Source: an uncultured Myxococcales bacterium
GTDB taxonomy: Bacteria; Myxococcota_A; UBA9042
Assembly: GCA_903850505.1 (NCBI GenBank)
Contig: CAINLT010000006.1
Location: forward strand, 15,536 to 79,535
Length of the DNA: 64,000 bases
Direction: 5' to 3'
The position numbers and the translations under genes are program-made. How positions within the stretch are numbered: position 1 is the stretch's first letter; the number at the start of each line of letters is the position of its first letter. The notes under the pieces were generated by a model, which searched no databases, was not told the DNA's origin, and saw only the letters and a program-made list of their open reading frames with translations. This document shows positions 10,384 to 27,194 of the stretch, piece after piece.

Positions 10384-10393
10384 GCAACCTACC

Positions 10394-10422: not shown

Positions 10423-10492
10423 GAAGGCGGATGGGTGTCCGCTGAGTGCGCAACCTTTTTGCATCTCGCAGCAACAAAAGTTCAGGTGACCC

Positions 10493-10894
10493 GTGAGCCA
10501 CGCGGGACAACGGTCACTGAGCCACCCAAGGATGCACGGTACGATGACGGCAACCACTCAACTTCGCTACCGTTTGCACCCGCAAGCCGCCCACCGCAAG
10601 GTCGCTGGCGAAGTGTTCGTGGTCACGGGCGATCGGGCCTTTCATCGCATGCAAACCACCACGGCCATCGCACTTTTTGACGCGCTCGGGCAAGCCGAAG
10701 CGGGTGCAAGCCCTGGCGAGCTCGTGGCGGCGCTGTGCCAACAATTCGATGTGACGAAAGCGACGGCGGAAAACGACGTTGCGGATTTTATTGCTACGCT
10801 CGTGACGCGCCAATTGGCCGTGCCGGTCGATGCGCCGCGCACCGCAGCCGATCTTCCATCACCTGCCGACCCCCAAGCAGAGGTGACTCCATGA
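10493..10894 (+). CDS. PqqD-family peptide-binding protein (RiPP recognition element type)
   Basis: YRLHPQAAHRKVAGEVFVV...TTTAIALFDAL...SPGELVAALCQQFDV..A.NDVADFIATLVTRQL follows the PqqD pattern: strands, then a helical wing with D-V-x-x-F-[LI]-x-x-L. The true start may be ATG 10532 or 10544. The stop TGA 10892-10894 overlaps the next ATG (ATGA). Confidence 0.7.
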   Translation: MSHAGQRSLSHPRMHGTMTATTQLRYRLHPQAAHRKVAGEVFVVTGDRAFHRMQTTTAIALFDALGQAEAGASPGELVAALCQQFDVTKATAENDVADFIATLVTRQLAVPVDAPRTAADLPSPADPQAEVTP

Positions 10895-13800
10895 ATTCCA
10901 GCGACCTACGCACCCGGTTCACGCCTCTCGCCCGCCAGCCCATGGTCTGGTTCAGCCTGCTTTGCGCCGCAACCGCGCTGACCGCGTGCGCACCGGACAC
11001 GCCCGCGCCGCACCCCGCGTGCATTTGGGAGGACGGCTGCCCGTCGGCGGACGCGGAGGGCGACGGCCAAGTCGGCGATTCGTCTGACGTCACGACGACC
11101 GTCACGCGAACGCTGGTCTTTTCCATTGATACCGCCATCGGTCCCGTGCTGACCGGCGACGTTTCCATCGCGACAATTGGCCCGAATGCGGACAAGGATC
11201 CGGCGACAGTCGGCGTGCAAGTCGACGTTTCGGTGACGACCGGCAACGTGCCCGACGGCGCGGCGCTGGAAGTGCTGCTGGACGGCGTCAAAGTGGGATC
11301 GCCGCAGGTCGTGCTCAACAACGCCGGCCGGATCAACGGCATCACGTTGACGTGCACGGCGACCAACGCGCCGCACTCGATTTCCGTGCGCGCCATCGTC
11401 AACGCCGCCAAGGGCGACGCGGCCGTGAGCAAAGACAAGAGCCTGCTGGTCAAGTGCGCGCAGGCGTGCACCGCAACGGTCGATCCGCTCTCGCAGTCTT
11501 GCCTGACGCAGGACCAGGATCCGCAGACGCCGGGGTTCCAGCAGAGTTTCATCGTGCACAGCGACCAGCCGGATTGCACGGATGCGTACCTGCTCGTGGT
11601 GGGCCCGCCGGGAACGCCGACCGAGACGGTGCATGTGGCGCTGAACGGTTCGACGTCTGTGCCGGTGATGGCGACGCTCGCGGTCGATGAAGCCGGGCTC
11701 ATCGGCGTGACCGCGACGGTGATCGGCGTGGTTGAAGATACCAACAATCCGGATCGCCAGTCCGTGCCGTCCGCGCCAGTGAGCGCGGTCATCACGACGG
11801 AAGCGCCGACGATCGTGCTGATGCAGCCGGCTTCGGGCCAGATCAAGCTGAGCGACGACACGGATCCGGCGACGCCGGGCATCCAGATTACCCTGATCGG
11901 CATGGCGACGGCGCTGACGTCTGCCGACAAGAACGCGATCGAGCTGTATGTGGACGGTACGCTGACGACGAAGACGACGCAGCAGATCGACGGGCAGTTT
12001 GTCATTCCGCTGAGTTTCACGACGACGGGAACGCACGCGCTGCTGGTGAAAGCGACCAACGGTTGCGGGCTGAGCGGCCAGAAGTCGAAATCGCTGGCGG
12101 TGTTCGTCGACAAGGCGGGACTCGCGATCCTCGCGCCGACGCAGGATGTCGTGCTTCACGTGGCGGACGACCTGGACAAGACGACGGCCGATATCCTCGA
12201 CACGACGCTCTCGGTCGCTGTGACGACCGAGACCGCGGGCACCGATCTGGAGGTCTACTGCAAGCCCAAGATCGCCAAGGCCTACCCGACGACGCCGACT
12301 GCGACCGTGCTCTACAGCGACGCCTCGCTGCAGACGGTCGATATCCCGCTGTCGCTGTCGGTCAGCCAGCTGGGTCAGGAAATTGAGTGCCGCGTGCAGG
12401 ACAACTCGCCCAACCAGACGGTGAGCGCGCCGGTGGGCTTTGTCGCCGCGTTGCCGCCGCCGTGCCTGCATGTGATTACGCCCGCTGCAGCGGTGACGGT
12501 GACGACCGCTGGCGTGGAATTCCTGCTGGCGACTTCCGGCTTGGACGGCCAAATCGTGCAGGGCTACCTGATCACGCCGAGCGGCGTGCCGCTGGATGCC
12601 GTGGATCTGGGCACGCCGGTGACCAACGGTCTCGCGGGCACGTTCCCGCTGCTGGACGGCGGCGTGCAGGTTCCGGACGGCACGTACACGCTGTCGTTCC
12701 AGGCGATGGACAAATGGGGCAATTTTGCCGGTCAATCGCTGTGCTCGGACGTCACGCGGACGGTGACCATCGACACGACGCCGCCGACGCTGGTGATTAC
12801 GCTCCCGGTCAAGGCGACGCTGACGACGCTGGACGATCCGGACAGCGATCCCGCGAAGCCGGGCTACCAGATCGACGTAGAAGTGACGATTACCGACGCC
12901 CATGTGGTGTGCCTGAACGTCGACGGCGTCCTGTTCGCGTGCAATGCCAACGTGCCGGAAGGCGCGGGCGTCGTCGTGTTCCACGATGTGACGCTGCAGC
13001 CGGGGCTGACGGCGCTGTCCGTGTACGGCTCGGACATCAACGGCAACACTTCCGCGCCGGCGCCGACGCTCGTGACGCTGATCTCTGACGTGCCGATCGT
13101 GAAGTTTATCTCGCCGGTCGGGTCACTGAAGGTCGCCAGCGACAGCGTAACGTTCACCGTCAGCGTGACCAGCCCGACCGACGGCTTGCCCGTGACGGCG
13201 GCGACGCTGGAAATCCTGCAGAACAGCGTGGCCATGCCGGTGACGCCGACGGAAACCGCGCCCGGCGTGTACACCTTCACGTTGAGCGGCTTCTCGTCGG
13301 GCGTGACGACCGTGCAAGTGGGCGCCTTCGTGCCCGCGCTACCTGACAAGAAAGGCTATTCGGGCGAAATTACGGTCACGTTCAAGGGCGACTTGCCGAC
13401 GGCGACGATCAGTTCGCCGACCGAAGGCCTTGTGTTCAACGCCAGCAACCTGACCTGCGCGCTGGGTCAGGCGGACTGCGTGTTGCCGGTCGCCGCGACG
13501 TTCACCAACGTCGAAGACGGCAGCGCGGTCGAACTGACCGTGACGTGCGGCGGCAGCGTCAGCAAGACCACCGGCACCGTTCAGGGCGGCAACGCCAAGC
13601 TGGCCAACGTCAAGCTGCTGGACCAGAACGCCTGCGAGCTGTCGCTTGCGGTCACGGACGCTGCGGGCCAGACCGCGGTCTCGGCGGTCATCCACGTCAC
13701 GGTGGATCGCATCGCACCGGCATTTGGCGAGCTCAAGTCGCCGACCCCGTACGGCGGCCTGACGCTGCTGGCGATCAACGATCTGGACGCCGATCCGACC

Positions 13801-16800
13801 AATGGCATGCAGGTGAACTGGGTCCAACAAATCGCTGGCGTGCCGGCGGGTGCGACGGTGACGTGCGATGTGACGGACGATCTGGGCAAGTCCGCGCCCG
13901 GCTTCTCGACGAACGTGGCGACGACGACGTCCGACGCGGTGTTCGAGTCGGTCAGTTTCGGCGCCATCACCCTGCCCAACGGCTACAACATCAAGATCGT
14001 CTGCACAGTGAAGGATCTCGCGGGCAATCAGACCCAGAAGACGCTGCTTGCGCAGGTCCTCGCCGACTTGCCGCAGGTCATCATGAGCACGCCGTACCCG
14101 AACGCCGATCCGTGCGCGGGCAATGGCGATTGCTCGTTTGGCGGTTTCTGCTACCAAAAGATCTGCACCGCGCCGTGGAACAAGACGAGCGACCGCAAGC
14201 TCGCGTTCACGACCACCGGCCTGCCCGACGGCGCGGCTGCGCGGCTCTGCACCAACACGCCTGGCGTGACCGGCACCGCGTGCGCGACCGCCGGCTACGT
14301 GTCAATCGGCAGCATCACCGTCCAGAAATCCGCGGCGACGTTTGACCTCAGCAATCTCGCGGACGGCAGCTACCACGTCATGGTGGAAGTCTTCTTCGCC
14401 GCCAAGACCACTTGGGTCACGTCGCTCGACAGCGGCTTCCTCAAAGGTCGCGAACGCGCGCTGCTCATCGACACCGTGCCGCCGCAAGTCGCCAGCGTGA
14501 CCGGTCCGAGCGCGCCGGGTGTGCCCGCCGCTTGCCTCGCCGCCGCTTCGCAATCCGTGGCCGATGGCCAGCAGCCCGGCGGCAAGTTCCAGTTCCAGAT
14601 CGCGATGGCCAACGAGGACGCGACCGTGTCATTGCTCGTCAACAACGTCTCGGCCGGGTCACTGACGACCGTGGGCAAGAGCGGCGCGCTGGCCGTCACG
14701 ATCGCGACGGAAGGGACGGCGACGTTTGAAACTGTGGCTGTCGATCTGGTCGGCAACGTCAGCGACATCCAGCAGTTGCCTTCGCTGTTCGTCGACACGA
14801 TCGCGCCCAATGGCGATTTTTCGACGCCGGCCAAGTCGCCGCTGATCGTGGGCGACAACCGCGACGTTGCCGTGGTCAGCGTCAATGACGACGTCGAAAA
14901 CGAGCCGGTCACGGTCAAGGACCTCGGCCTCGTCAAGGCGGCGCAGAACTTCATCGCCGGCACCGCGCTGTTCCCGGACGCGACTTTCGGCCTGCTGTCC
15001 GAAGGCTCGCATACGCTGACGGCGGATCTGCGCGATCACTGCGCCAATACCTCTACGATCGGGTCGACGCCCGCCGTGGTCGTTGTCGACACGCAGCCGC
15101 CGACGCTGGCGATCACTGCGCCGTCGGAGGGCTCGCTGTTCACGGACAACGATGATGCGGCGCCGGCGCAGAGCGGCTATCAGGTCGCGCTGACGTTCTC
15201 GACGACCGGCGCGGCGACGTGGACGCTGGAGCTTGGCACGGACTGCGATTCGGGTTCCCTGAATTGCCCGAGCTACCAGCCGGCCGGGACGGGCACAATC
15301 GCCAATCCGGGTGGCCTGGAAGCTCCGGTGCTGGTGACGGTGCCGTTTGGCAACACCGTGCACTACAAGTTCCGGCTGACGGCCGTGGACAGCGCCGGCA
15401 ACAAGACGCTCGCGACGCGCGGCTTTGACGTGCTGCTGTCGGGCTGCCTCGTCAAGCTCACCGGCTTGCCGAGCAATGGCATGCTGAACACCCAAAAATG
15501 CGCGACGCCGGGGCAGAATTGCGCCAGCGTGGTCGTTCCCTTGACTGCCTCCTACGTCGGTCCGTGCGGCGCGGCGACGGCGATCAAGCTGATGAAGGGC
15601 GGACTGGAAGTTGCCACCGTCACGCCGTCAGCGCAGGCCGCGGCGTTTGACGTGACGATCGTCGATGGCGACAGCACGGACTTGGAAGCCGTGGTGTTCG
15701 AGGGGCTCAATGCCAAGGGTTCGTCGGGCAAGCTCGGTATCGCCGCTGACCTGACCAATCCGACCGTCAGCTTTGCCGCCGCGACCGTGCTCGGTTCGCC
15801 GACCGTGTCCGGTACGAGCGCGCTGCAAGGCAAGGACCAGGACTTGAACGCCGGCACGCCGGATCACCAGGTTCACATGCAATTGGCGCTGGCGGATGCG
15901 CATTTGAACGGCGGCAAGCTCACGGCGCTCGACCGCACGGTCAATGGCGCCACGGCGCCGCTCAGCAATGCGTCGGTGACGCCGCCGGTCGCGCTGACGG
16001 GTGCGGCGCAGTCGCTCGATGTCCAGTATGCCTCGCTGCTGGCCGATCAGGTCAACACGGTGAAGGCGACGGTGCAGGACAGCTTCGGCAACACCGGATC
16101 GGCGACCCTCGTCGTGACGGTGGACTGGCTGGCGCCCGCGGCGATTACGCTCGATGCGCTGGTGCCCGCGAACCTGAATCCGCGCCGCCCGTCGGCCAAG
16201 CTGACGTTCCAGGCGGTCGGCGACAATGGCGTGACCGGCACCGCGACGAGCTATCAGGTGCGGTATGCCAAAAAGGCGTTCACGACGCAGGCTGAGTTTG
16301 ACGCTGCGTGCGATCCGAGCCAGATCGCGGGCTTCACGGCCGTCATCCCGGCCGCGTCGGGTACATCGGACAGCGTGACGATCTCCGGCCCCGACGGCCG
16401 CAATCCCACCAACCTGTGCAAGTTCACGCCGCTCACGGACAACGGCATCTCGTCGTATTACTTCGCCATCGTCGCCGTCGACGCGGCGGGCAATAAAGGC
16501 CCGATGTCCAACGTCGTGTCGACCGACAAATTGCGGCTGAACTACCAGCGCATTACCAACAGCGGCGGCACGGGCTCGACATACGACCAACTGGCCTACC
16601 GCGCCCGCGTCTTTGGCCTGGGCGACCTGAACGGCGACGGCTTTGCCGATGTCGGCTTGGGCGGCGGCGCCACCACGCCGTTCTGCATCCTGTATGGCCG
16701 CGCGGGCAACGCGGACATCGACCTCGCGACCGAACCGGCGACGACGCTGCAGTGCCTGCCCAACGCGGGCGGCCTGGGCGGCGTGGTCGGCGGTCCCGCA

Positions 16801-18048
16801 GACGTCAACGGCGACGGGCTGAGCGACCTCGTCATCGGCGCCAAGACCGGCAGCGGCGTGCCGCGCGAAGTCTGGGTCTACCTCGGCAACAAGGGCGCGC
16901 AGTTGAATGCGACGCCAGCCGTGATCATCACGGGCGTCGTGGCGACGACCGCGACGGCGGCCGGACCGCAGCGCTTGCAGACCGTGGGCAACTTCAACGG
17001 CGACGTTTCAGCCAGCGGCAAGCCGGTCATGGACATCGCCGTGCGCAGCGCCAAGGACCTGAACTACGCACAGTCGGAGACGGTCTACGTGATTCCGGGC
17101 AATCCGGGCTGGTCCAACGCTTCTCCGCTGACCATCACGCTGACCAACGCGCTGGACCGCAGCAACAACAATATCGTCCGCGTGCGTTTGAGCGATGGCA
17201 CGAACACGTCGACGCTGTTTGGCCAGAACTTCCACGGCGGCAACGTGCTGCTGGAGAATGGCGGCGTCGGTCAGCAGTTTGACGAATTGGTCGTGTCGCA
17301 GCAGGCGTCGCCGCAGCAGGTCAACGTCATCCGCGGTCGTGAGCTGTCGGGCGCGCTCGACCTGATGATGACGTCGGCGAGCACGGGCGTGCAGCCCAAT
17401 GACGTGGACACGGTGCGCATCTTCCAACAGACCGGCACCGGCCAGCAGTCCTTTGGCGCCTACTTCGATCTCGTCGAGTTCGATGGCAAGCCCGGTCTTG
17501 ACCTGGCGATTCAGCACCAGACCGGCGGCGTGGCCGACCATCCCGGCTTCTACTGGCTGCGCGGCTCGGCCATTCAGGCTGCCGCTGTCGCGCCCCCGCA
17601 GAACACGATCACGCTGTACATCACAGCGGCGGTCGCGGGCTTCACGGATCTGTTCTCTGTGGGCGCTGGCTACCTCAGCTGGTCGTTCGTTTGGGGTCCG
17701 CAGAACACCGGGAATTTCTTTGATGATCCGAGCGCGGGCACGCACACGGACGTCATGTACGCGCGCCCGCCGTTCACCGGCGCCACGGGCGGTGGCCAAC
17801 AGGTCATCTTGCGCATGGCGGTGCCGCGGACGGAAACGGCCAATGAAGTTGGTTTCGTCTATGAAGACGTGGTGATCACCGACCCGTTCGTGCCGACCAA
17901 TAGCCTCTTCGGCTACAATGTCACGGCGCCCGGCGGTCTCGGTTTCGCACCAGCGGGAGACTTCAACAAGGACGGCTTCGTCGACCTGATCATCGGCTCA
18001 GCCGACGGCACAGGCGGCGTCAAGGGCAGCACGCTCATCGTTTACTAA
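10891..18048 (+). CDS. Giant surface lipoprotein: many Ig-like domains plus C-terminal FG-GAP/VCBS (integrin-alpha-like) repeats
   Basis: An ATG at 10891 gives MNSSDLRTRFTPLARQPMVWFSLLCAATALTAC, which contains a lipobox. This is followed by about 1900 aa of T/V/A/D-rich beta-sandwich-like segments. The C-terminus has GDLNGDGFADVGLGG, ADVNGDGLSDLVIGA and GDFNKDGFVDLIIGS. The track start 10735 is an over-extension into pqqD. Confidence 0.85.
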   Translation: MNSSDLRTRFTPLARQPMVWFSLLCAATALTACAPDTPAPHPACIWEDGCPSADAEGDGQVGDSSDVTTTVTRTLVFSIDTAIGPVLTGDVSIATIGPNADKDPATVGVQVDVSVTTGNVPDGAALEVLLDGVKVGSPQVVLNNAGRINGITLTCTATNAPHSISVRAIVNAAKGDAAVSKDKSLLVKCAQACTATVDPLSQSCLTQDQDPQTPGFQQSFIVHSDQPDCTDAYLLVVGPPGTPTETVHVALNGSTSVPVMATLAVDEAGLIGVTATVIGVVEDTNNPDRQSVPSAPVSAVITTEAPTIVLMQPASGQIKLSDDTDPATPGIQITLIGMATALTSADKNAIELYVDGTLTTKTTQQIDGQFVIPLSFTTTGTHALLVKATNGCGLSGQKSKSLAVFVDKAGLAILAPTQDVVLHVADDLDKTTADILDTTLSVAVTTETAGTDLEVYCKPKIAKAYPTTPTATVLYSDASLQTVDIPLSLSVSQLGQEIECRVQDNSPNQTVSAPVGFVAALPPPCLHVITPAAAVTVTTAGVEFLLATSGLDGQIVQGYLITPSGVPLDAVDLGTPVTNGLAGTFPLLDGGVQVPDGTYTLSFQAMDKWGNFAGQSLCSDVTRTVTIDTTPPTLVITLPVKATLTTLDDPDSDPAKPGYQIDVEVTITDAHVVCLNVDGVLFACNANVPEGAGVVVFHDVTLQPGLTALSVYGSDINGNTSAPAPTLVTLISDVPIVKFISPVGSLKVASDSVTFTVSVTSPTDGLPVTAATLEILQNSVAMPVTPTETAPGVYTFTLSGFSSGVTTVQVGAFVPALPDKKGYSGEITVTFKGDLPTATISSPTEGLVFNASNLTCALGQADCVLPVAATFTNVEDGSAVELTVTCGGSVSKTTGTVQGGNAKLANVKLLDQNACELSLAVTDAAGQTAVSAVIHVTVDRIAPAFGELKSPTPYGGLTLLAINDLDADPTNGMQVNWVQQIAGVPAGATVTCDVTDDLGKSAPGFSTNVATTTSDAVFESVSFGAITLPNGYNIKIVCTVKDLAGNQTQKTLLAQVLADLPQVIMSTPYPNADPCAGNGDCSFGGFCYQKICTAPWNKTSDRKLAFTTTGLPDGAAARLCTNTPGVTGTACATAGYVSIGSITVQKSAATFDLSNLADGSYHVMVEVFFAAKTTWVTSLDSGFLKGRERALLIDTVPPQVASVTGPSAPGVPAACLAAASQSVADGQQPGGKFQFQIAMANEDATVSLLVNNVSAGSLTTVGKSGALAVTIATEGTATFETVAVDLVGNVSDIQQLPSLFVDTIAPNGDFSTPAKSPLIVGDNRDVAVVSVNDDVENEPVTVKDLGLVKAAQNFIAGTALFPDATFGLLSEGSHTLTADLRDHCANTSTIGSTPAVVVVDTQPPTLAITAPSEGSLFTDNDDAAPAQSGYQVALTFSTTGAATWTLELGTDCDSGSLNCPSYQPAGTGTIANPGGLEAPVLVTVPFGNTVHYKFRLTAVDSAGNKTLATRGFDVLLSGCLVKLTGLPSNGMLNTQKCATPGQNCASVVVPLTASYVGPCGAATAIKLMKGGLEVATVTPSAQAAAFDVTIVDGDSTDLEAVVFEGLNAKGSSGKLGIAADLTNPTVSFAAATVLGSPTVSGTSALQGKDQDLNAGTPDHQVHMQLALADAHLNGGKLTALDRTVNGATAPLSNASVTPPVALTGAAQSLDVQYASLLADQVNTVKATVQDSFGNTGSATLVVTVDWLAPAAITLDALVPANLNPRRPSAKLTFQAVGDNGVTGTATSYQVRYAKKAFTTQAEFDAACDPSQIAGFTAVIPAASGTSDSVTISGPDGRNPTNLCKFTPLTDNGISSYYFAIVAVDAAGNKGPMSNVVSTDKLRLNYQRITNSGGTGSTYDQLAYRARVFGLGDLNGDGFADVGLGGGATTPFCILYGRAGNADIDLATEPATTLQCLPNAGGLGGVVGGPADVNGDGLSDLVIGAKTGSGVPREVWVYLGNKGAQLNATPAVIITGVVATTATAAGPQRLQTVGNFNGDVSASGKPVMDIAVRSAKDLNYAQSETVYVIPGNPGWSNASPLTITLTNALDRSNNNIVRVRLSDGTNTSTLFGQNFHGGNVLLENGGVGQQFDELVVSQQASPQQVNVIRGRELSGALDLMMTSASTGVQPNDVDTVRIFQQTGTGQQSFGAYFDLVEFDGKPGLDLAIQHQTGGVADHPGFYWLRGSAIQAAAVAPPQNTITLYITAAVAGFTDLFSVGAGYLSWSFVWGPQNTGNFFDDPSAGTHTDVMYARPPFTGATGGGQQVILRMAVPRTETANEVGFVYEDVVITDPFVPTNSLFGYNVTAPGGLGFAPAGDFNKDGFVDLIIGSADGTGGVKGSTLIVY

Positions 18049-18089
18049 TCAGGTCAATCAACGCCGACAAGGCGGCGAAGGGGAAACAC

Positions 18090-18266
18090 ATGAACCACAC
18101 GGAACACCAGCAGAACGTCCAACAAAGCCAGAGCGATCGGCAGACGGCGCGGCAGCCGTACGTCAAGCCGGAAGTCGAGACCTTGGGCGGCGCGCTGACC
18201 ACGCTGCTGGCGTCGGGCTGCCAGTGTGCGATTTGCCCGCCGGATCCCCAAGCGGACAACGTCTGA
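18090..18266 (+). CDS. Candidate RiPP precursor peptide (58 aa), not in the supplied ORF track
   Basis: My translation: MNHTEHQQNVQQSQSDRQTARQPYVKPEVETLGGALTTLLASGCQCAICPPDPQADNV. SD-like AAGGGG at 18078-18083, 6 nt before the ATG. Third-position G/C is high. Sits directly upstream of the kinase-like and rSAM/SPASM genes. Confidence 0.6.
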   Translation: MNHTEHQQNVQQSQSDRQTARQPYVKPEVETLGGALTTLLASGCQCAICPPDPQADNV

Positions 18267-18268
18267 AC

Positions 18269-19105
18269 GTGACGCGCGCGTTGGCCCCTTCCTTTCGGCG
18301 TTGGGCGTCGCGATTTGGCGACTCGGCCTATGCGGTGGACCTGCCGGACGCGTTTGGCACCGTGCGCCGTCCGTGGCGCGGGCCTGTCGACGCGGATCTC
18401 GTCTTCCAGTTTGCTGCTGAAGCCACCGCGGCACCTTTGGGCGAAGCAGCGACGAAGTTCTCGCGCCTCGACGCCGATGGCTTTGCGTTTACCGCGGCGT
18501 CGTGCCACGGCGCGGGTTGCTGGGCGGAGCGCGCTGGGACCGTCTACCTGCACGACGGCGAGCAATCGCCGCTGACCCGCGTCCAGATGCTGCAGGAGGC
18601 GCTGTTTGCCCCGGTTTACGGCCAGTTGCTCCTGCAAGGCGGCCTGCTCCTGCACGCCGCGACGCTGTGGATCGATGGCCACGCCTACGTGGTGGCGGGC
18701 TACTCGACCGCCGGCAAGACGACCCTGAGCGCGCGATTCGCGCCGAATTGGCTGAGCGATGAGCACGCGTTCCTCGCCCGCGATGGCGACAAGTGGCAGG
18801 TCCTCCGCCACATTGATTTCCGCGGCAACGAAGGCGATTTTCCCTGGCGCGCGCCGCTCGCCGGTCTGCTCTGGCTCGGTCCGGATCGCAGCCAGTCGCG
18901 GGTCACGCCGTTGTCGCCGGGGGACGCGCTGCAGCGGCTCCTGCCGCAGGCTTTGGTCGCAGGTCCGCCGACTTCCGCGCTTGTGCTGGACGCTGTCGCA
19001 CACCTGTGTCAGCAATTGCCGGTGATGGAACTGAGCCACAACCTTGCAACTTCCGTTGCAGACTTGGCGGAAATGATCGCGGGAGCGAGCCATGGCACAA
19101 GGTGA
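18269..19105 (+). CDS. HPr kinase/phosphorylase-related P-loop protein (HprK-related kinase family)
   Basis: LLLHAATLWIDGHAYVVAGYSTAGKTTLSARF...LSDEHAFL matches the HprK C-terminal-domain pattern H-G/A..x..G.g.l..G.S..GK[ST]. A GTG at 18269 lies 3 nt after the precursor stop. The track start 18224 would overlap the precursor core. Confidence 0.65.
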   Translation: MTRALAPSFRRWASRFGDSAYAVDLPDAFGTVRRPWRGPVDADLVFQFAAEATAAPLGEAATKFSRLDADGFAFTAASCHGAGCWAERAGTVYLHDGEQSPLTRVQMLQEALFAPVYGQLLLQGGLLLHAATLWIDGHAYVVAGYSTAGKTTLSARFAPNWLSDEHAFLARDGDKWQVLRHIDFRGNEGDFPWRAPLAGLLWLGPDRSQSRVTPLSPGDALQRLLPQALVAGPPTSALVLDAVAHLCQQLPVMELSHNLATSVADLAEMIAGASHGTR

Positions 19106-20279
19106 TGACGCCAGCCAGCTCGACGGCTTTCTCACGGCGCTGAGGGCGGCGTGGGCAACCGAAGACCGCCCGGTCAGCGCGCACCTGGACGTGACGTATC
19201 GCTGCGACCTCGATTGCGCGCACTGCTACCTCGACAACCGGACGACCTGGCCGGAGATGACCACGGCGGAGTGGCTCGACGTGCTGCAGCAATTGCACGA
19301 CGCGGGTGTCCTGTTCCTCGTTTGGAGCGGCGGCGATGTGCTGATGCGCAGCGATTTTGCCACGCTCCTGACGCGCGCCGCGGAGCTGGGCCTGCTGAGC
19401 CGCGTGAAGACCCACGGCGGCCAAGTCGACGCCACGTGGGCGCGCCTGTTCGCAGACAGCAAGGTCATCCGCACCGACGTCAGCGTGTACAGCTTGCGTC
19501 CTGAGATCCACGACGCGCTGACGCGGCGACCGGGTTCGCTCGTCAAAACACTCAACGGCGTCGCGGCATTGCGGGCAGCGGGCGTGCCGGTCAAGGTTTC
19601 CTGCTGGGTGCAGCCGGCGATCATCGACGAGATTGCCGCGCTGAGTCAGCACTTCACCGCGATGGGCTGCACGATCAGCTTTGAGACGCGCACGACGCTG
19701 GACCTTTCGGCGTCGGCCAACCTGGACGCGATGCGACTGGAGGGCGACGATCTCCTGCGGGCGCGCGTCGCGATCCTGCGGGCGCAGCCAGTGGCCAAAC
19801 CGACCGCGATCGCCGATCGGACGGTCCACGATCCTTGCGGCGCGGGGCGGACGCTCGTGTACATCAGCCCGGACGGCGAGCTGTGGCCGTGCATCAACTT
19901 TCCCATGGCGCTTGGCAACCTGCGCGAGAAGCCGTTGCTGGAGATCTGGCGCGAATCCGCAGCGCGCAAGAGCCTCGTCGCGTGGGACAACCGCGCGCGG
20001 ACGACGTGCCAAAGCTGCGCCGGCAGCGGCTTCTGCTTTTTCTGCCCCGGCGACGCGTACAAGACCACCGGCGATTTCCGCAAAGCGCCCGATGTCTTCC
20101 ACGCCGAAACACGTGCCAAGATGATCGCGTGGGAGCAGGTCAACGGCGACACGTTCAGCGCCGCGGACTGGTCCAGCGTGCCGGACGAAAGCGGCCGCGC
20201 GCCTGCCGCCAAACAGTTCATCTTCCCGATCCACCGGCCGAAACGCGGCGCCGGCGCTCGGGTCACGCAGGCCAAATGA
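19092..20279 (+). CDS. Radical SAM / SPASM-domain peptide-modifying enzyme
   Basis: VTYRCDLDCAHCY provides CxxxCxxC, and WSGGDVLM is a GGE-like SAM motif. The C-terminal SPASM-like cysteines are CGAGRTLVYISPDGELWPC ... CQSCAGSGFCFFCPGDAY. Overlaps the kinase gene by 14 nt. Confidence 0.85.
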   Translation: MAQGDDASQLDGFLTALRAAWATEDRPVSAHLDVTYRCDLDCAHCYLDNRTTWPEMTTAEWLDVLQQLHDAGVLFLVWSGGDVLMRSDFATLLTRAAELGLLSRVKTHGGQVDATWARLFADSKVIRTDVSVYSLRPEIHDALTRRPGSLVKTLNGVAALRAAGVPVKVSCWVQPAIIDEIAALSQHFTAMGCTISFETRTTLDLSASANLDAMRLEGDDLLRARVAILRAQPVAKPTAIADRTVHDPCGAGRTLVYISPDGELWPCINFPMALGNLREKPLLEIWRESAARKSLVAWDNRARTTCQSCAGSGFCFFCPGDAYKTTGDFRKAPDVFHAETRAKMIAWEQVNGDTFSAADWSSVPDESGRAPAAKQFIFPIHRPKRGAGARVTQAK

Positions 20280-20680
20280 CGCTCACGTGGCACGATCTGA
20301 CCGGGCGGTCCATGTGGCCATTGGGGGCGCCGATGCAGGCTGGCGTGGCGCCGGTCGCGGCAAAGTCGCTGCATGTCGGCGACGTCATTGCCTTCATCGC
20401 CAGCGACGCGCCGGTCCTCTGGCTGCATCGCGTCGTGCGGGTTGAAGCGGGTGCGATCGTCACGCGTGGCGACACCAACGGCTACGACGATCCGCCGGTG
20501 CCGTTCGCCGCGGTGCTTGGGCGGGTTGAAGCGGTGCGGATCGGCACGCTTGTGCTGCCGCTGCCGCATTCCGGTCGCCTCGGCGCGCTGCATCGCCGCG
20601 CTGGTCTCGCGTGGTCGCATCTCGCGCCGGCCTTGCGCCGTTTGCCCGCGGTGCGGGGGCGGACACGAAAAGGCGCATGA
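20276..20680 (+). CDS. Soluble S24/S26 (SipW/Sec11-like, S26B-type) serine peptidase domain protein
   Basis: 134 aa. GRSMWPL corresponds to the G-S-M-x-P nucleophile box. LHRVVRVEAGAIVTRGDTNGYDDPPV matches the H-R-[IV]...T-K/R-G-D-x-N...D..P box. No N-terminal TM anchor. The ATG overlaps the rSAM stop (ATGA at 20276-20279). Confidence 0.6.
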   Translation: MTLTWHDLTGRSMWPLGAPMQAGVAPVAAKSLHVGDVIAFIASDAPVLWLHRVVRVEAGAIVTRGDTNGYDDPPVPFAAVLGRVEAVRIGTLVLPLPHSGRLGALHRRAGLAWSHLAPALRRLPAVRGRTRKGA

Positions 20681-21693
20681 CGATCCTTGACAGGAGCGAA
20701 CGCCAAGGTACTGTGACCGGGGGCGCGCCGCAGGTGGCGCCATCGGGTGCTGTGTTGAAATCAACTGTGACTTCAGGCTATTGCCAACACCTATCCACAA
20801 CCCTGATCGCACGGGCGATTCGCTTGAGCGCGCCGGTTGTTTTGCTGGGTCTGCCGGCATGCGCCAACGATCAGCTCGCGCAGGTACGCCACGATGCCAC
20901 GGCGATGCGGGAAGAGCTCGCGGAAGTGAAGCGCAGCCAGACTGCGTCCCGCATCCAGTTCGAAGAACTGCGCAATCGACTCATCCTGATTGAAGACAAG
21001 GCCGACTCAGAAAAGGTCGCCCGCGCCCGCCGCGAAGAGTGGATTCCGCGGCTGCCGACGGTGAAAGTGGGCGAACCCGATGCCCATGTCGACGCCCGCG
21101 ACCAGGTTGGCCTGCCATCCAGCATTCCCAAGATGGACATGCCGCAAAAGGACATGCGCTCGGCCAACCAGCTGAGCGCGCAGACGATTCACCTGACGCA
21201 TGATGATCCGCTGCCCGGCGAAGCGAACGACGATCCCGTCGAAGTTTCCGGTCCAGCCGATGAGACGCCGCCGCAGGCCGCTGGCGCCAAGGCCAAGCTC
21301 GATCCGACCGCGTCGCTGTACGAAAAGGCCAAGTCGCTGTTTGATCAAGGGCAAATCGCCGAGTCGCGGCGGGTCTTTGAGACGCTGCACCGCCAGTACC
21401 CGCGGCATGATCTTGCCGACAACGCGCTCTACTGGATCGGTGAAGGCTACTACGCCCAAGCGCAGTGGCTCACGTCCGCCCAGGCATTCCTGCGGGTCGC
21501 CAAAGAATATCCGCGCGGCAACAAAGTGCCGGATGCAATGCTGAAAATGGCTTTGTGCTACCGCAAGTTGGGCGACGATCGCGGCGCGGACGACGTGCTG
21601 AAACAGTTGACGCGGCTGTATCCGGGTACGGAAGCGGCGGACAAGGCGACGGCGATGAAGAAGACGTCCGCCGATGGCACGGCTCAGCCGTAA
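20677..21693 (+). CDS. YbgF/CpoB-like TPR protein (coiled-coil N-terminus, C-terminal TPR)
   Basis: The C-terminus LYEKAKSLFDQGQIAESRRVFETLHRQYPRHDLADNALYWIGEGYYAQAQW...YPRGNKVPDAMLKMALCYRKLGD is the YbgF-type TPR signature. Possible signal/lipobox VVLLGLPAC. The start is uncertain: ATG 20677, or GTG/TTG around 20752-20767. Confidence 0.7.
   Translation: MTILDRSERQGTVTGGAPQVAPSGAVLKSTVTSGYCQHLSTTLIARAIRLSAPVVLLGLPACANDQLAQVRHDATAMREELAEVKRSQTASRIQFEELRNRLILIEDKADSEKVARARREEWIPRLPTVKVGEPDAHVDARDQVGLPSSIPKMDMPQKDMRSANQLSAQTIHLTHDDPLPGEANDDPVEVSGPADETPPQAAGAKAKLDPTASLYEKAKSLFDQGQIAESRRVFETLHRQYPRHDLADNALYWIGEGYYAQAQWLTSAQAFLRVAKEYPRGNKVPDAMLKMALCYRKLGDDRGADDVLKQLTRLYPGTEAADKATAMKKTSADGTAQP
20687..20714 (+). 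promoter_or_regulatory. Candidate sigma70-like promoter for the downstream TPR/LysM genes
   Basis: TTGACA (20687-20692), a 16-nt spacer, then TACTGT (20709-20714). The next ~80 nt have visibly A/T-richer third positions, suggesting non-coding leader. Pattern only. Confidence 0.25.
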
Positions 21694-21744
21694 GAACCGG
21701 TGTCTGTGGCGTTGCCGGATGCGATGCCAGAAGTGGAGCGGAGA

Positions 21745-22908
21745 ATGTCGGGCATGTTGGCCAAAATCTGCAAGACGCTGCTGCCGATCGCGGCGTTGCT
21801 CGGGGCGTTGACCGTGCAGGCCCAGGAGCTGCCGGATCGCACCGCGCCGGCCATCGCGATGCAGCAATCCGCGCCCAGCGGCGAGCGGACGTACGTGGTG
21901 GAAGCGGGCGACACGCTGTGGAGCATCGCGGAAGGCCTGTACGATGAGCCGTGGTACTGGCCGTCGCTGTGGTCCTACAACCCGCAAATCACCAATCCGC
22001 ACCTGATTTACCCGGGCGATCTGCTGTACCTGAGCCGCAAGAGCTCGCAGACCGCGGCGGAGAAATCCATCACGTTTGCGACGTCCCGCTACGAGCCGCG
22101 GCCCAAGAGCGGCATCGAATTGGTGCGCCGCGTGGGCTACATCTCCTCGCGCGACTACCGCGAATCCGGGGTGCTGGAAGCGAGCCGTGAAGAGCGCAAC
22201 ATGCTCGGCCAGCTCGACGAGGGCTATGTCCGCTTCAACACGCGGCGCTGCGCTGAGGACGACAAGGCCAAGGCGGAACGCGACGCGTTTCGTGCCAGTG
22301 AAGACGGTGAGGCCAAGCGCGACGAGAAGAAGTCCGACGACGACGAAGATGAAGCGCTGGTCGGACCGTGCGTGCGCGACGGCGATCGCTACACGCTGTA
22401 CCGGGTCGAGCGCGAGATCGTTCACCCGATCACCGGCAAGCGCGTCGGCTACAAGATCAACTTCCTCGGCGACGCCAAGGTGCTGAGCACGGTGCGGCCT
22501 CTCGTCAGCGTGCTGATCACCCGATCGCACAGCGAAATCAGCCGCGGCGACTTGCTGACCAACGTGTTTGAGCCGCTGCAGCTTGTGACGCCCTTGCCCA
22601 ACAAGGTGCAAGTCGCGGGCGTGATCCTCGATTTCCACCATGAAACGACGGCGGCGGGCGCTTACAGCTACGTCTACATCGACAAAGGCGCGGACGACGG
22701 CGTGGAAAAGGGCAACCGCTTTGAGATTGTCTGGCGCGGCGACGGCTTGGCGCGCGGCAATGTCGGCAACCTGAAAGACTACCCGGACGAGCAGATTGGC
22801 GTCGCGATGGTCGTGGAAGCGTACGATCGCCACAGTCTGGCGCTCCTCACGACGACCGTGCGGGAACTTGAACGCGGCATGCCGGCGATCATGGCCAAGG
22901 GCTTCTGA
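21745..22908 (+). CDS. LysM domain-containing secreted protein
   Basis: Signal-like MSGMLAKICKTLLPIAALLGALTVQAQE. LysM motif YVVEAGDTLWSIAEGLY...NPHLIYPGDLLYL. The track start 21700 is a possible alternative. Confidence 0.8.
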   Translation: MSGMLAKICKTLLPIAALLGALTVQAQELPDRTAPAIAMQQSAPSGERTYVVEAGDTLWSIAEGLYDEPWYWPSLWSYNPQITNPHLIYPGDLLYLSRKSSQTAAEKSITFATSRYEPRPKSGIELVRRVGYISSRDYRESGVLEASREERNMLGQLDEGYVRFNTRRCAEDDKAKAERDAFRASEDGEAKRDEKKSDDDEDEALVGPCVRDGDRYTLYRVEREIVHPITGKRVGYKINFLGDAKVLSTVRPLVSVLITRSHSEISRGDLLTNVFEPLQLVTPLPNKVQVAGVILDFHHETTAAGAYSYVYIDKGADDGVEKGNRFEIVWRGDGLARGNVGNLKDYPDEQIGVAMVVEAYDRHSLALLTTTVRELERGMPAIMAKGF

Positions 22909-24912: not shown

Positions 24913-26561
24913 GCCAGTCGCCAGTCGCCGCCGCCGCCGAACAGTCGCCCCATCGTCCGGTGCCCACGGCGGTCGACGAGCTGCACTACCTCATCCGCGC
25001 GCAGTACAAGCTGCTCTACGTCGTGTCCGCCGAAGAGGAGCGCGTGGAGCGCTGGCTGGGTGAATTGGCGACGCTGGAGAGCAAGCCGCTGCGCGAGCGC
25101 TGGGACGTCACGGCGTGGCAGGCGCGGCAGCTGATTCACTGGTCCTGCTCGCAGGGCTTTCGTTGCGCGTCGATGGACGTGCCCGGCGACGTGCGCGACC
25201 CGATTCGCGCGCTGGACTGGATCGCCAACAACTTGCAGCGCGACGCCATCGTGGTGCTGCGCGATTTCCACCCGTTCCTGAACGATCCGATGGTCGCGCG
25301 GCGCGTGCGTGATTTGCCGCACTTGTTCGCCGATGGCACGGCCAAGCGCTCCGTGGTGTTCCTCAGCCCGATCGTCAAGATTCCGGCGGAGATGGAGAAA
25401 GACCTGGTCGTGGTCGATTTTGACCTGCCGGATCGCCAGACGCTGGAAGACATCGTGCGCGATCAGGCTTTCGCGGGCGCGGCGTCGCAGCGCTTTGGCA
25501 AGAATTTCCAGAAAGTGCTGGAGAACCCCGCGCTGCAGCGGGAAATCGCGGAGGCAGCGCTTGGCTTGACGGAGCAGGAAGCGCGGCAGGTCTTCCAGAA
25601 GACGAGCGTGCGGGACAAGGGCTTTCACCTGCCGACGATCCTGCAGGAAAAGAAGCACATCATCCGCAAGTCGGGAATTCTCGAGTTCTACGAGACGGCG
25701 CTCGGCATGGAGTCCGTCGGCGGGCTGCAGCTGATGAAGGATTGGCTGAACAAGCGCCGCCACGCGTTTTCGCCCGCGGCCCAGGAATTTGGCTTGCCGG
25801 CGCCCAAGGGAATCCTGCTGCTGGGCGTGCCTGGCTGCGGCAAGTCCCTGTCGGCAAAAGCGATTTCTCAGGCGTGGCAGATGCCGCTGTTGCGGCTGGA
25901 CGTGGGCAAGGTGTTTGGCTCGCTGGTCGGCTCGTCAGAAGAGAACATGCGTAAGGCCATCAAGACCGCGGAAGCCGTGGCGCCGGCGATCCTGTGGCTG
26001 GATGAGCTGGAGAAAGGCTTCTCGGGCACGAAGTCGTCGGGGCAGTCCGATGGCGGCACGACGGCGCGCGTGTTCGCGACGTTCCTGACGTGGCTGCAGG
26101 AGAAGTCCTCGCCGGTTTTTGTGATTGCGACGGCGAACGACGTCAGCCAACTGCCGCCGGAGCTGCTGCGCAAAGGCCGCTTTGATGAAATCTTCTTCGT
26201 GGACCTGCCCAACAAGTCCGAGCGCGAGGAAATCCTCAAGATCCAGCTGCGCAAGCGCCATCGCGCGCCGGAGACGTTCGACATGAAGCGGCTTGTGGAT
26301 GCGACGTCGGGCTTCTCGGGCTCGGAGTTGGAAGAGGCGGTGGTCGGCGCGCTGTACGATACGTTTGACGTGAGTCAAGGCCAGACGGACATCCACACCG
26401 ACGAATTGGTGGCGGCGTGCCGCGAGGTGATTCCGCTGAGCCAGACGATGCGCGAACGGCTGGCGGAGATGCGCGAATGGTCCAAGTCGCGCGCGCGGCG
26501 GGCGTCGCCGGCGGATGACGCGTCCTCGGGCAATGAAACGGCGCCGAAGCTGGAAATGTAA
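24909..26561 (+). CDS. AAA+ ATPase, Ycf46-like
   Basis: Walker A GILLLGVPGCGKSL and Walker B AILWLDELEK, with an N-terminal domain of about 270 aa. The ATG overlaps the FHA stop (ATGA at 24909-24912). Confidence 0.85.
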   Translation: MSQSPVAAAAEQSPHRPVPTAVDELHYLIRAQYKLLYVVSAEEERVERWLGELATLESKPLRERWDVTAWQARQLIHWSCSQGFRCASMDVPGDVRDPIRALDWIANNLQRDAIVVLRDFHPFLNDPMVARRVRDLPHLFADGTAKRSVVFLSPIVKIPAEMEKDLVVVDFDLPDRQTLEDIVRDQAFAGAASQRFGKNFQKVLENPALQREIAEAALGLTEQEARQVFQKTSVRDKGFHLPTILQEKKHIIRKSGILEFYETALGMESVGGLQLMKDWLNKRRHAFSPAAQEFGLPAPKGILLLGVPGCGKSLSAKAISQAWQMPLLRLDVGKVFGSLVGSSEENMRKAIKTAEAVAPAILWLDELEKGFSGTKSSGQSDGGTTARVFATFLTWLQEKSSPVFVIATANDVSQLPPELLRKGRFDEIFFVDLPNKSEREEILKIQLRKRHRAPETFDMKRLVDATSGFSGSELEEAVVGALYDTFDVSQGQTDIHTDELVAACREVIPLSQTMRERLAEMREWSKSRARRASPADDASSGNETAPKLEM

Positions 26562-26573
26562 CGGGAGGCCCGC

Positions 26574-26984: not shown

Positions 26985-26987
26985 GCC

Positions 26988-27191: not shown

Positions 27192-27194
27192 CCC

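Follow-up and report, generated by a model that had tools for sequence, protein, structure and literature searches.

A conserved 58-codon gene next to kinase-like and radical SAM genes in uncultured Myxococcales probably encodes a RiPP precursor peptide

What is encoded by a short open reading frame (ORF) that directly precedes a kinase-like gene and a radical SAM (rSAM) gene in an uncultured Myxococcales bacterium? The window, the whole stretch of 64,000 nucleotides (64 kb) analyzed here, had received a first-pass annotation that singled out a 58-aa ORF and described it as unlisted and as having a lasso-like leader motif. On the window DNA read directly, the ORF starts at ATG 18090 and stops at TGA 18264-18266, and the 58-aa length, the SD-like run, the G/C-biased third positions, and the Cys and Pro motifs (Y24-x-x-P27-x-V29, G33-G34, C44-x-C46-x-x-C49, PPDP) are all present as quoted. 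The word "unlisted" holds for the earlier ORF list, but an identical protein (P0001) is already deposited, unnamed, in NCBI/ENA-derived collections. The features of this ORF are as follows.

18078..18083, plus strand: SD-like AAGGGG, 6 nt before the ATG; identical in orthologous locus L002, GGAGAGG at the equivalent place in L003
18090..18266, plus strand: probable precursor-peptide gene, 58 aa (translation, GC3, conservation, dN/dS)
18090..18149, plus strand: residues 1-20, polar Gln-rich N-terminus, unconstrained by dN/dS and unalignable across the peptide family
18150..18176, plus strand: residues 21-29, R-Q-P-Y-V-K-P-E-V, the [KR]xPYxxPx[LIV] motif and putative RRE-binding strand; P23, Y24, and P27 invariant in 10/10 family sequences
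18177..18221, plus strand: residues 30-44, ETLGGALTTLLASGC, conserved block ending at Ser42 and Cys44 (invariant residues, synonymous codons)
18222..18263, plus strand: residues 45-58, QCAICPPDPQADNV, variable C-terminal tail (family comparison)

Is this ORF a gene at all? High-GC DNA produces many spurious ORFs, and in this 66% GC DNA an 18-kb segment contains 135 ORFs that reach 40 aa or more, so that ORF length alone is uninformative here. The region might thus be a chance ORF lying over the 5' end of a kinase-like gene that starts at 18224, in a reading frame that is open in three orthologues. Composition and evolution of the ORF argue against this. Its GC3 is 0.83 versus a GC2 of 0.46, and over 18070-18250 the highest GC3 is that of its own frame. 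When 1.84 billion representative proteins were searched with a profile, 8 peptide clusters of 50 to 64 aa emerged from Myxococcales metagenome assemblies; length and frame are kept in all eight, and the ORF is neither lost nor frame-disrupted in any orthologous cluster. Purifying selection, a check proposed in the first pass, is evident over residues 23-58 (dN/dS of about 0.2; range, 0.21 to 0.24), whereas residues 1-22 give 0.9 to 1.7. Substitutions at codon positions 1, 2, and 3 number 119, 90, and 223, with the third position dominating, and the residues that never vary (P, Y, P, E, L, L, L, S, and C) each use 2 to 4 synonymous codons. The SD-like purine run upstream is kept in both orthologues aligned as DNA, and the pattern Y..P.[LIVM].{12,14}C occurs a single time in the six frames of the window. 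The conservation of the peptide, the codon-position substitution pattern, and this single pattern match are beyond chance.

The start of the kinase-like gene bears on the same question. Its features are the following.

18269..19105, plus strand: ScmC-like protein (PF27840) with an HPr-kinase/PEPCK fold (NCBIfam, PF27840, AF2 and Foldseek)
18698..18724, plus strand: its P-loop, GYSTAGKTT

The L003 kinase ATG aligns with GTG 18269 of the window, 3 nt past the peptide stop, and in five other lineages the kinase-like calls begin between the peptide stop (with a 1-nt overlap at the P0008 locus) and 29 nt downstream of it. Orthologues therefore put the kinase start at 18269 rather than 18224, and the two genes do not overlap, in line with the earlier suggestion that the kinase-like gene begins after the peptide; the longest-ORF call from 18224 is an annotation error to be corrected to 18269. 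A chance ORF is thus a highly improbable explanation. Judged by its sequence evolution, the 58-codon ORF is a genuine small gene, conserved in uncultured freshwater Myxococcales and under purifying selection at the protein level. Rfam gave no credible RNA element in 10000-22000, and promoter and terminator scans performed no better than chance.

Which parts of the peptide are conserved? The family shares the signature [KR]-x-P-Y-x-x-P-x-[LIV]-x14-C, conservation across the family is highest in the YxxPx[LIV] leader motif, and Ser42 (Tyr+18) and Cys44 (Tyr+20) are invariant in all ten clade sequences compared. Two elements highlighted in the first pass did not survive this comparison, since they are local rather than family features. 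Position 33 can be G, S, D, or E, and one member, P0006, has Ala in place of G34; with the C39 peptidase also absent, double-glycine cleavage was rejected. The Cys triad, offered as a thioether donor set, was rejected as a family feature on similar grounds: Cys46 and Cys49 are missing from 2 of the 8 clusters, P0009 and P0010 have one Cys each, and Cys44 alone is invariant. C-termini also vary in the clade and lack a conserved Ser; the window peptide, whose last residues are ADNV, contains neither Ser nor Thr beyond Ser42. A free N-terminus, a conserved recognition block, and a hypervariable tail form a pattern typical of precursors, and the tail (residues 45-58) is probably the hypervariable part of the core. 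Searches of Pfam and NCBIfam with 8 peptides (3 of the window clade and 5 distant analogues) matched no curated precursor family.

In every contig long enough to display it, the peptide belongs to the same operon, ordered PqqD, ~2380-aa Ig/FG-GAP lipoprotein, peptide, ScmC-like protein, rSAM/SPASM enzyme, and 122- to 138-aa S24/S26-fold protease. The peptide gene lies directly 5' of the ScmC-like and rSAM/SPASM genes at every recovered locus, as the proposed synteny with the rSAM gene had anticipated. The PqqD gene (orthologues of 116 to 120 aa) and the giant-lipoprotein gene (orthologues of 2378 to 2385 aa) occupy equivalent upstream positions wherever a contig extends that far. The remaining genes of the window operon are listed below.

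10532..10894, plus strand: PqqD-family RRE chaperone (Pfam PqqD, 34.3 bits versus a gathering cutoff of 23.4, for ORF 10493-10894)
10891..18048, plus strand: giant predicted lipoprotein of 2385 aa containing Ig-like and FG-GAP repeats (lipobox, FG-GAP Pfam matches)
19092..20279, plus strand: radical SAM/SPASM enzyme with no fused RRE (Pfam Radical_SAM, 2.7e-18; SPASM, 9.8e-12)
19203..19226, plus strand: CxxxCxxC motif of the rSAM enzyme (C38-x3-C42-x2-C45)
20276..20680, plus strand: 134-aa soluble S24/S26-fold peptidase homologue, putative leader peptidase (NCBIfam, motifs, AF2 and Foldseek)
20303..20320, plus strand: GRSMWP motif of the peptidase, followed by LHRVV and TRGDTNGYDD
20677..21693, plus strand: YbgF/CpoB-like TPR protein, its ATG overlapping the peptidase stop (ATGA); syntenic in all long orthologous contigs

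The PqqD gene starts at ATG 10532 or ATG 10544 (the longest ORF runs from GTG 10493), and its stop overlaps the ATG of the giant-lipoprotein gene (ATGA). The TPR gene is probably the downstream end, or a continuation, of the operon. Three features of generic RRE-dependent rSAM/SPASM RiPP systems are found in the window, namely, an adjoining precursor ORF, CxxxCxxC plus SPASM, and a discrete PqqD. We favor, with a probability of about 0.7, the reading that ORF 18090-18266 is a translated gene for the precursor peptide of a RiPP-type pathway encoded in the same operon, a pathway that appears from its genes to be a variant of RRE-dependent rSAM systems.

PqqD-type RREs are binders of short leader peptides, and the Y-x-x-P-x-L leader motif reported in the first pass is conserved family-wide as YxxPx[LIV] in an operon encoding both PqqD and an rSAM/SPASM enzyme. 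What would such a leader present, and to which enzymes? The fold of the ScmC-like protein was assigned by structure prediction and Foldseek, as was that of the peptidase. Its AF2 model (pLDDT, 92.5) matches PEPCK (1e-7) and HPr kinase 1knx (2.4e-4), while a PDB sequence search returned only insignificant P-loop matches. NCBIfam ScmC is its best match (E = 7.9e-9), at 35.3 bits below the 125-bit TIGR04249 cutoff, and PF27840 is recorded on all ScmC-like orthologues. H129, G144, S146, G149, K150, T152, and D164 are invariant, E165 nearly so, and position 151 is always Thr or Ser, giving a catalytic motif H...GxSxAGK[TS]T...SD[ED] that is kept across homologues. This is the H...G..G.GK[ST]...D[DE] motif of lasso kinases, with deviations in the second Gly (Thr or Gly) and the second acid (Glu or Asp), and the H-to-G distance of 15 and G-to-K distance of 6 are those of BsfK H148/G163/K169. 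The corresponding H/P-loop/acid motif is required in lasso kinases (PMC10368454), and HPr-kinase homologues phosphorylate RiPP precursors in a reaction enhanced by RRE proteins (PMC8498205, PMC10368454). Kinase-tailored lasso clusters (paeninodin PadeK; Bradymonas BsfK/BsfB1/BsfA) also resemble the window in combining a YxxPxL leader, as defined previously (PMC10368454), with a discrete PqqD-type RRE, and the kinase of the Bsf cluster, assisted by the RRE, acts on core Ser3 of BsfA at Tyr+19, a position adjacent to that of the invariant Ser42 in the window peptide (Tyr+18).

Does this make the peptide a lasso precursor? YxxPx[LV] at lasso spacing, the fact that the best NCBIfam matches of the PqqD protein are lasso PqqD (B1) models (both under their cutoffs), and the known role of HPr-kinase homologues as lasso tailoring enzymes would suggest so. 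The leader motif is indeed lasso-like, but an Asn-synthetase-like cyclase, a transglutaminase-like B2 protease, and an ABC exporter are absent from the cluster, from the 64-kb window, and from orthologous loci; in their place, the operon has an rSAM/SPASM enzyme and an S24/S26-fold peptidase. If Tyr24 is set at -17, the core starts at A41, and its positions 7-9 are A, I, and C, with no Asp or Glu. Classical kinase-modified lasso precursors also have a C-terminal Ser, in contrast to the window clade. Since there is neither a cyclase nor a B2 protease, the lasso reading was rejected, and we assign it almost no probability.

A RiPP precursor of the rSAM-modified kind accords with the enzyme encoded 3' of the kinase-like gene. 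Its Radical_SAM and SPASM matches (67 and 45 bits) both exceed Pfam gathering, and among solved proteins it is most closely related to the peptide maturases SkfB, SuiB, and PqqE, with SkfB nearest (1.6e-15) in an alignment that starts at SkfB residue 107. It scores far under every curated NCBIfam cutoff, its top matches there being the heme enzymes NirJ2 and AhbD. Sacti- and ranthipeptide systems (SkfB, AlbA, StsB, PapB), PqqE/PqqD, MftC/MftB, and SuiB likewise use an rSAM/SPASM enzyme with an RRE, and sacti-/ranthipeptide-type precursors have Cys in the core, as does the window peptide. The window differs from them in having a separate RRE protein whose gene lies 7 kb upstream, a single invariant Cys, no C39/PCAT or S8 leader protease, a kinase as obligatory neighbor, and no curated maturase family above cutoff.

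The earlier idea of signal-peptidase-type processing gains from the gene that follows the rSAM gene, which encodes an S24/S26-fold protease of signal-peptidase type. NCBIfam sigpep_I_arch (TIGR02228) matches it at 6.1e-7 (29.4 bits versus a cutoff of 51.85), and Foldseek places its AF2 model (pLDDT, 85.3; the C-terminus a long basic helix) closest to LexA, lambda cI, SpsB, Escherichia coli SPase I, and SipA; a PDB sequence search gave 0 matches. Like ER/archaeal signal peptidase I (SipW/Sec11, S26B) and the LexA/S24 clan, it has GxSMxP, HR, and GDxN..DD motifs. H51, R52, G65, D66, D71, and D72 are invariant among 13 homologues, and S12 is missing only in P0034, whose sequence starts at M13. 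Unlike the S26B enzymes, however, it is just 134 aa long, is paired genetically with an rSAM gene, and has no transmembrane anchor, Ser12 being too near the N-terminus for a transmembrane segment; the peptidase is therefore presumably cytoplasmic.

How might these proteins act together on the peptide? By homology, the discrete PqqD would bind the leader via P23-Y24-x-x-P27-x-V29, as lasso B1 proteins bind YxxPxL. Such binding would hold Ser42 and Cys44, ~18 to 20 residues downstream, in the partner enzymes' active sites, thus serving as a fixed ruler; the spacing emerges from comparison of the sequences, and the ruler function is what we infer from it. By analogy with BsfK and other lasso kinases assisted by an RRE, the ScmC-like enzyme, with intact P-loop, His, and Asp motifs, would phosphorylate a residue with a hydroxyl group, Ser42 being the most plausible target. 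The rSAM/SPASM enzyme would introduce a radical modification centered on Cys44, for which a thioether or a different crosslink to the variable tail is the most plausible form, and the soluble ER/archaeal-type signal-peptidase homologue would cut off the leader at a conserved site, L-L-(A/G)-S or A-S-G.

Loci outside the clade allow this spacing to be compared further. When genome contigs were scanned with the ScmC-like protein, two closely related Myxococcales MAGs and a distant locus, L006 ("Ca. Methylomirabilis"), were recovered; a metagenome-contig scan with a ScmC alignment gave one uninformative 1.1-kb match. L006 and two loci on metagenome contigs, L013 and L014, are unrelated ScmC/PqqD/rSAM loci, and small ORFs adjoining these genes carry [KR]x(P)YxxPx[LIV], with the first Cys after the motif Tyr at +20, +20, and +18. 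In L013 the spacing is kept despite a charged segment before the Cys (EARAIAC). All three small ORFs end in Ser.

The block preceding Cys44 could also be read as part of a tiny secreted lipoprotein, with residues 31-43 as the h-region, L-A-S-G-C44 as the lipobox, and Cys44 lipidated, while the rSAM enzyme, PqqD, and kinase act elsewhere. LLASG|C does look like a lipobox or a cleavage site of the AXA type, the gene just upstream codes for a genuine lipoprotein, and the cluster has no dedicated exporter. The n-region, however, would span 30 residues with a net negative charge, E28 and E30 lying right beside the hydrophobic stretch, and the best 11-residue hydropathy is merely 0.8 to 2.15. In P0008 to P0010 the uncharged run is down to 7 to 8 residues and broken by D/E/Q, and against the consensus [LVI][ASTVI][GAS]C, A-S-G-C is merely lipobox-like, with a weak h-region and charged interruptions in P0009 and P0010. 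The preserved spacing across the charged segment of L013 and the lack of a membrane anchor in the co-encoded peptidase also speak against lipidation, which is quite improbable.

Returning to the precursor reading, which known cassette does the operon most resemble? SynChlorMet (SCM) is defined by ScmC (TIGR04249/PF27840), ScmD (PqqD, TIGR04248), and the rSAM/SPASM proteins ScmE and ScmF. It shares with the window operon a ScmC-family HPr-kinase-like protein, a PqqD, and a PqqE-like rSAM/SPASM enzyme. The window misses the equivalog cutoffs (ScmC, 35 versus 125 bits; ScmE, 88 versus 400 bits), its PqqD gave no match to TIGR04248 at E <= 0.1, and it has one rSAM gene where SCM has two, together with an extra soluble S26-like peptidase and the giant lipoprotein. 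To our knowledge, SCM is a purely computational cassette definition whose precursor and product have never been assigned, and a literature search returned nothing relevant on SynChlorMet/ScmC or on RiPP systems combining an HPr kinase, rSAM/SPASM, and PqqD.

What, then, is the part of the giant lipoprotein (N-terminus MNSSDLRTRF...LLCAATALTAC, with lipobox)? The peptide is strictly co-inherited with it and the genes are translationally coupled, the CxxC motif occurs in the tail of 8/10 family sequences, and the genomic context is one of housekeeping genes. It is conceivable on these grounds that the peptide is an unmodified small protein, for instance a metal- or redox-active Cys/CxxC peptide or a partner in the assembly or regulation of the giant lipoprotein, and that the rSAM enzyme and PqqD have a different substrate, which may be the giant protein. 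The latter has one Y..P.[LIVM] match compared to 0.6 expected by chance and no Cys ruler; for want of motif enrichment, it was rejected as an RRE substrate. The peptide, in contrast, bears exactly the motif that PqqD-type RREs recognize in short leaders, two family members do without CxxC, and the distant loci pair a peptide with ScmC, PqqD, and rSAM genes where a giant-protein homologue is absent. We consider an unmodified protein unlikely. For the modified peptide that we favor, the small mature product, we speculate, probably works with the co-transcribed giant Ig/FG-GAP lipoprotein. ORF domain scans found no exporter or immunity genes within the 64-kb window, and the locus, set among housekeeping genes, looks vertically inherited, a setting no less compatible with a physiological role (cofactor, protein partner) than with an antibiotic-type product. 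The Qhp operon provides a functional analogy, and no more than that, for the tie to the giant protein: it encodes QhpC, the small, Cys-containing subunit of quinohemoprotein amine dehydrogenase, which is made with a leader, together with the rSAM/SPASM enzyme (QhpD) that crosslinks it and large exported subunits, one of them a beta-propeller, and FG-GAP repeats likewise form propellers. No QhpD model is among the 25 best NCBIfam matches listed for the window rSAM enzyme.

A bolder joint reading, which we hold to be doubtful, would make peptides of the form [KR]xPYxxPx[LIV]-x12-14-(S)-C the substrate type of ScmC-type (SynChlorMet-like) rSAM cassettes and a new RiPP class, in which a lasso-type RRE ruler presents Ser/Cys to the kinase and the rSAM enzyme, a cytoplasmic ER-type signal-peptidase homologue serves as the leader protease, and the product is a crosslinked partner or ligand of the 2385-aa surface lipoprotein rather than an antibiotic. 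If the precursor assignment is correct, it provides a concrete substrate for HPr-kinase-like/PqqD/rSAM-SPASM cassettes so far defined only computationally, and [KR]xPYxxPx[LIV]x12-14C becomes a simple rule to find precursors in other phyla. A giant surface lipoprotein conserved as part of the operon would suggest a physiological, cell-envelope-linked role, rare among RiPPs. Two unusual arrangements also raise questions of enzymology: an rSAM enzyme alongside a precursor kinase, and a soluble signal-peptidase homologue as a RiPP leader protease. The pairing of rSAM and peptidase genes is found at the distant locus L016 as well.

The 58-codon peptide ORF is a conserved gene. Its neighbours follow a conserved order (PqqD, giant lipoprotein, peptide, ScmC family, rSAM/SPASM, a 122- to 138-aa protein, a YbgF/CpoB-like TPR protein, and a LysM protein), co-directional and tightly packed in every recovered locus with a contig long enough.

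Peptide gene and its operon neighbours in the window
10532/10544-10894, forward: PqqD, Pfam score 34.3 bits (cutoff 23.4); stop overlaps the start of the giant gene (ATGA); orthologues of 116 to 120 aa
10891-18048, forward: predicted giant lipoprotein, 2385 aa; lipobox LTAC; Ig-like and FG-GAP repeats
18090-18266, forward: peptide ORF, ATG 18090 to TGA 18266; translation MNHTEHQQNVQQSQSDRQTARQPYVKPEVETLGGALTTLLASGCQCAICPPDPQADNV
18269-19105, forward: ScmC-like protein (ScmC family, PF27840)
19092-20279, forward: rSAM/SPASM enzyme, by Pfam domains
20276-20680, forward: 134-aa protein, S24/S26-like peptidase homologue
20677-21693, forward: YbgF/CpoB-like TPR protein; ATG 20677 overlaps the peptidase stop (ATGA)

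The window DNA is ~66% GC and contains 135 mostly meaningless ORFs of at least 40 aa within 18 kb; therefore, ORF length alone does not prove a gene. The ATG, stop, and translation are as the first-pass annotation gave them, with the SD-like AAGGGG 6 nt before the ATG. GC1, GC2, and GC3 in the peptide frame are 0.66, 0.46, and 0.83, the highest GC3 of any frame over 18070-18250, which upholds the proposed third-position bias; this pattern is the coding signature of the source genome. The ORF is unlisted only in the first-pass track: an identical, unnamed protein is already present in NCBI/ENA-derived collections. Two further 58-aa orthologues share 78% and 68% identity with the window peptide, and DNA alignment shows that both the ATG and the SD-like run are kept. 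The dN/dS ratio (Nei-Gojobori) is 0.21 to 0.24 over residues 23 to 58, compared to ~1 over residues 1 to 22. Within a 22-codon conserved block from seven lineages, pairwise differences number 119, 90, and 223 at codon positions 1, 2, and 3, and the invariant P, Y, P, E, L, L, L, S, and C are each encoded by 2 to 4 synonymous codons. Searched by profile, 1.84 billion representative proteins gave only eight peptide clusters, all of 50 to 64 aa. Pfam and NCBIfam scans of eight peptides, three from the window clade and five distant analogues, matched no curated family, and Rfam found no RNA element at the locus.

The longest ORF of the ScmC-like gene opens at GTG 18224, inside the peptide ORF. DNA alignment places the ATG of the orthologous contig L003 exactly at window GTG 18269, 3 nt past the peptide stop, and in other lineages the kinase-like gene is called from the peptide stop codon (1-nt overlap, P0008 locus) to 29 nt beyond. 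These starts agree with the earlier proposal that the longest-ORF call masks the peptide, and GTG 18269 is the predicted true start, leaving the two genes without overlap. A chance ORF is excluded by this start together with the conservation and selection evidence.

Within the clade, the first ~20 residues and everything past Cys44 are free to vary, with a conserved block, (R/K)-x-P-Y-x-x-P-x-(V/L/I)-E-(T/S)-...-L-L-(A/G)-S-(G)-C, between them. Position 33 is G, S, D, or E, and one member has Ala in place of Gly34. A CxxC formed by Cys46 and Cys49, its offset variable, is found in 8 of 10 sequences; both residues are absent from P0009 (tail TDPDPA) and P0010 (tail NGPGTGTQE). Thus, the Gly-Gly pair and the C-x-C-x-x-C triad, both singled out initially, are local features. 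The YxxPx[LIV] leader motif fared better, being part of the conserved block and recurring in small ORFs that adjoin three unrelated ScmC/PqqD/rSAM loci.

Distant ScmC/PqqD/rSAM loci with small ORFs
L006 (Ca. Methylomirabilis): S24/S26-like peptidase, methyltransferase, and NTP_transf_5 gene; small ORF ...KRPYERPRLEPSQIFGAEAMVGSCC...
L014: 2OG oxygenase and NTP_transf_5 gene; small ORF MLDKKPYSTPQLVQVALNHEQAILSAC...
L013: followed by a 1478-aa C25-peptidase/fn3 protein; small ORF in three tandem copies, MKKNYEKPAIIHTETIEARAIACS...

The order at L006:9003-14512 (a MAG contig, DATIFO010000003.1) is S24/S26-like peptidase, ScmC-like, PqqD, rSAM/SPASM, 67-aa ORF (MSKRTKEPGGQSKRPYERPRLEPSQIFGAEAMVGSCC...STTS), methyltransferase, and NTP_transf_5, with polysaccharide-export genes after the cluster; a longer ORF in the same frame keeps the small one out of the ORF listing. 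The single L014 ORF (4138-4401; MLDKKPYSTPQL...RPS) lies between the 2OG-Fe(II) oxygenase and ScmC. The three L013 ORFs (2486-3150; 38 to 59 aa, C-termini GGP(I/L)TS) come after the ScmC, PqqD, and rSAM genes and before the C25-peptidase/fn3 gene.

Counted from the motif Tyr, the first Cys falls at Tyr+20 in 9 of 10 clade sequences and at Tyr+19 in the tenth, at Tyr+20 in both L006 and L014, and at Tyr+18 in all three L013 copies. A Ser occupies Tyr+18 or Tyr+19 in nearly all of these peptides, and the pattern Y..P.[LIVM].{12,14}C has a single match across all six reading frames of the window. The lipobox-like LASG|C could instead mark a lipoprotein signal, which is unlikely: the segment is only weakly hydrophobic, an acidic stretch of 30 residues would have to serve as the "n-region", the "h-region" of divergent members is broken by charged residues, and analogues with a charged pre-Cys segment still obey the Cys ruler. 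A role for the peptide as an unmodified partner of the giant lipoprotein is a less likely reading; in the distant analogues the peptide still accompanies the enzymes, and the giant protein is absent.

The nearest solved relatives of the rSAM enzyme are the peptide maturases SkfB (1.6e-15), SuiB, and PqqE. The alignment to SkfB begins only at SkfB residue 107, so the enzyme has no fused RRE (the PqqD-type leader-binding domain), which fits the discrete PqqD. NCBIfam matches are all far under their cutoffs, with NirJ2 and AhbD on top; hence, homology does not fix the chemistry. The ScmC-like model is confident (pLDDT 92.5), with PEPCK and HPr kinase as structural matches, and the invariant motif is H129...G144-x-S-x-A-G-K-T/S-T...S-D164-E. 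Its His-to-Gly and Gly-to-Lys spacings equal those of the Bradymonas lasso kinase BsfK, in which these residues are needed for activity (PMC10368454). The 134-aa protein has no Pfam match at E <= 0.01 and a weak match to archaeal/ER-type signal peptidase I (6e-7). Its model (pLDDT 85) best matches LexA, lambda cI, SpsB, E. coli SPase I, and SipA (probability ~1, TM 0.5 to 0.6); GxSMxP, HRVVR, and TRGD..DD are kept across homologues, and its N-terminus is too short to hold a membrane anchor. In a further lineage (L016:3-1183, GCA_964406905.1), the genes for a distant rSAM/SPASM protein (28% identity to the window enzyme) and a distant peptidase homologue overlap by 4 nt, which suggests a conserved rSAM-peptidase module beyond the window clade.

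Lasso B1/PqqD proteins require YxxPxL at -17 to -12 (PMC10368454). HPr-kinase homologues phosphorylate lasso precursors at the C-terminal Ser before leader removal (PMC8498205); the Bradymonas homologue instead targets core Ser3, equivalent to Tyr+19, in a reaction strongly stimulated by the RRE (PMC10368454). By analogy, PqqD would bind P23-V29 and present Ser42 and Cys44, the ScmC-like protein would phosphorylate Ser42, favored because no hydroxyl residue follows it in the window peptide, and the rSAM/SPASM enzyme would modify Cys44, probably with a crosslink into the tail. The soluble SPase homologue may cut at LL(A/G)S| or ASG|, both of which obey the small -1 rule. We infer this whole mechanism by comparison. 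The small ORFs of L006, L013, and L014 share the C-terminal Ser of kinase-modified lasso precursors, and these loci mirror phospho-glycosylated lasso peptides, with Ser C-termini in all and an NTP_transf_5 nucleotidyltransferase in two (PMC8498205); the window clade has either lost this feature or never had it.

In its workings the system resembles the RRE-dependent rSAM/SPASM pathways of RiPP biosynthesis, with leader and kinase both of lasso type, and falls outside the curated definitions of the SynChlorMet cassette, lasso peptides, and every named rSAM maturase family. A lasso peptide is rejected, as genes for a cyclase, a B2 protease, and a transporter are all missing from the cluster and from the rest of the 64-kb window. 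Four features appear undescribed in the literature searched: this combination of genes, a soluble protease of SPase type, a Tyr-to-Cys ruler common to several phyla, and a giant lipoprotein conserved inside the operon. The system is relevant to RiPP enzymology, on a case that is comparative throughout.

The giant lipoprotein (~2380 aa) keeps its position in all orthologous contigs that extend far enough; it is unusual for a RiPP-type operon to include a structural or surface protein. Carriers of the operon are uncultured Myxococcales MAGs, and the flanking genes are housekeeping (RseP, TsaB, LipA, PPK, PPX, FtsK, RNase G, and PurA). Called as its longest ORF, the TPR gene would open at GTG 20611, inside the peptidase gene; ATG 20677 agrees with the start called in some orthologues. 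After the cluster, a forward run at 23026-27914 (FHA/coiled-coil protein, AAA+ ATPase, DUF1257, DUF2997, and a 239-aa protein without Pfam match) is syntenic in closer orthologous MAG contigs and partly replaced in the most divergent (L007, P0008 locus). A second FG-GAP protein (FG-GAP_3 and ASPIC/UnbV domain; 32370-34316, reverse) lies 14 kb downstream of the giant lipoprotein. Two very large proteins, at 3-4970 (forward; running past the window start) and 52810-56253 (reverse), are full of MopE-type "putative metal-binding motif" repeats (PF11617; E = 8e-104 and 4e-33, respectively).
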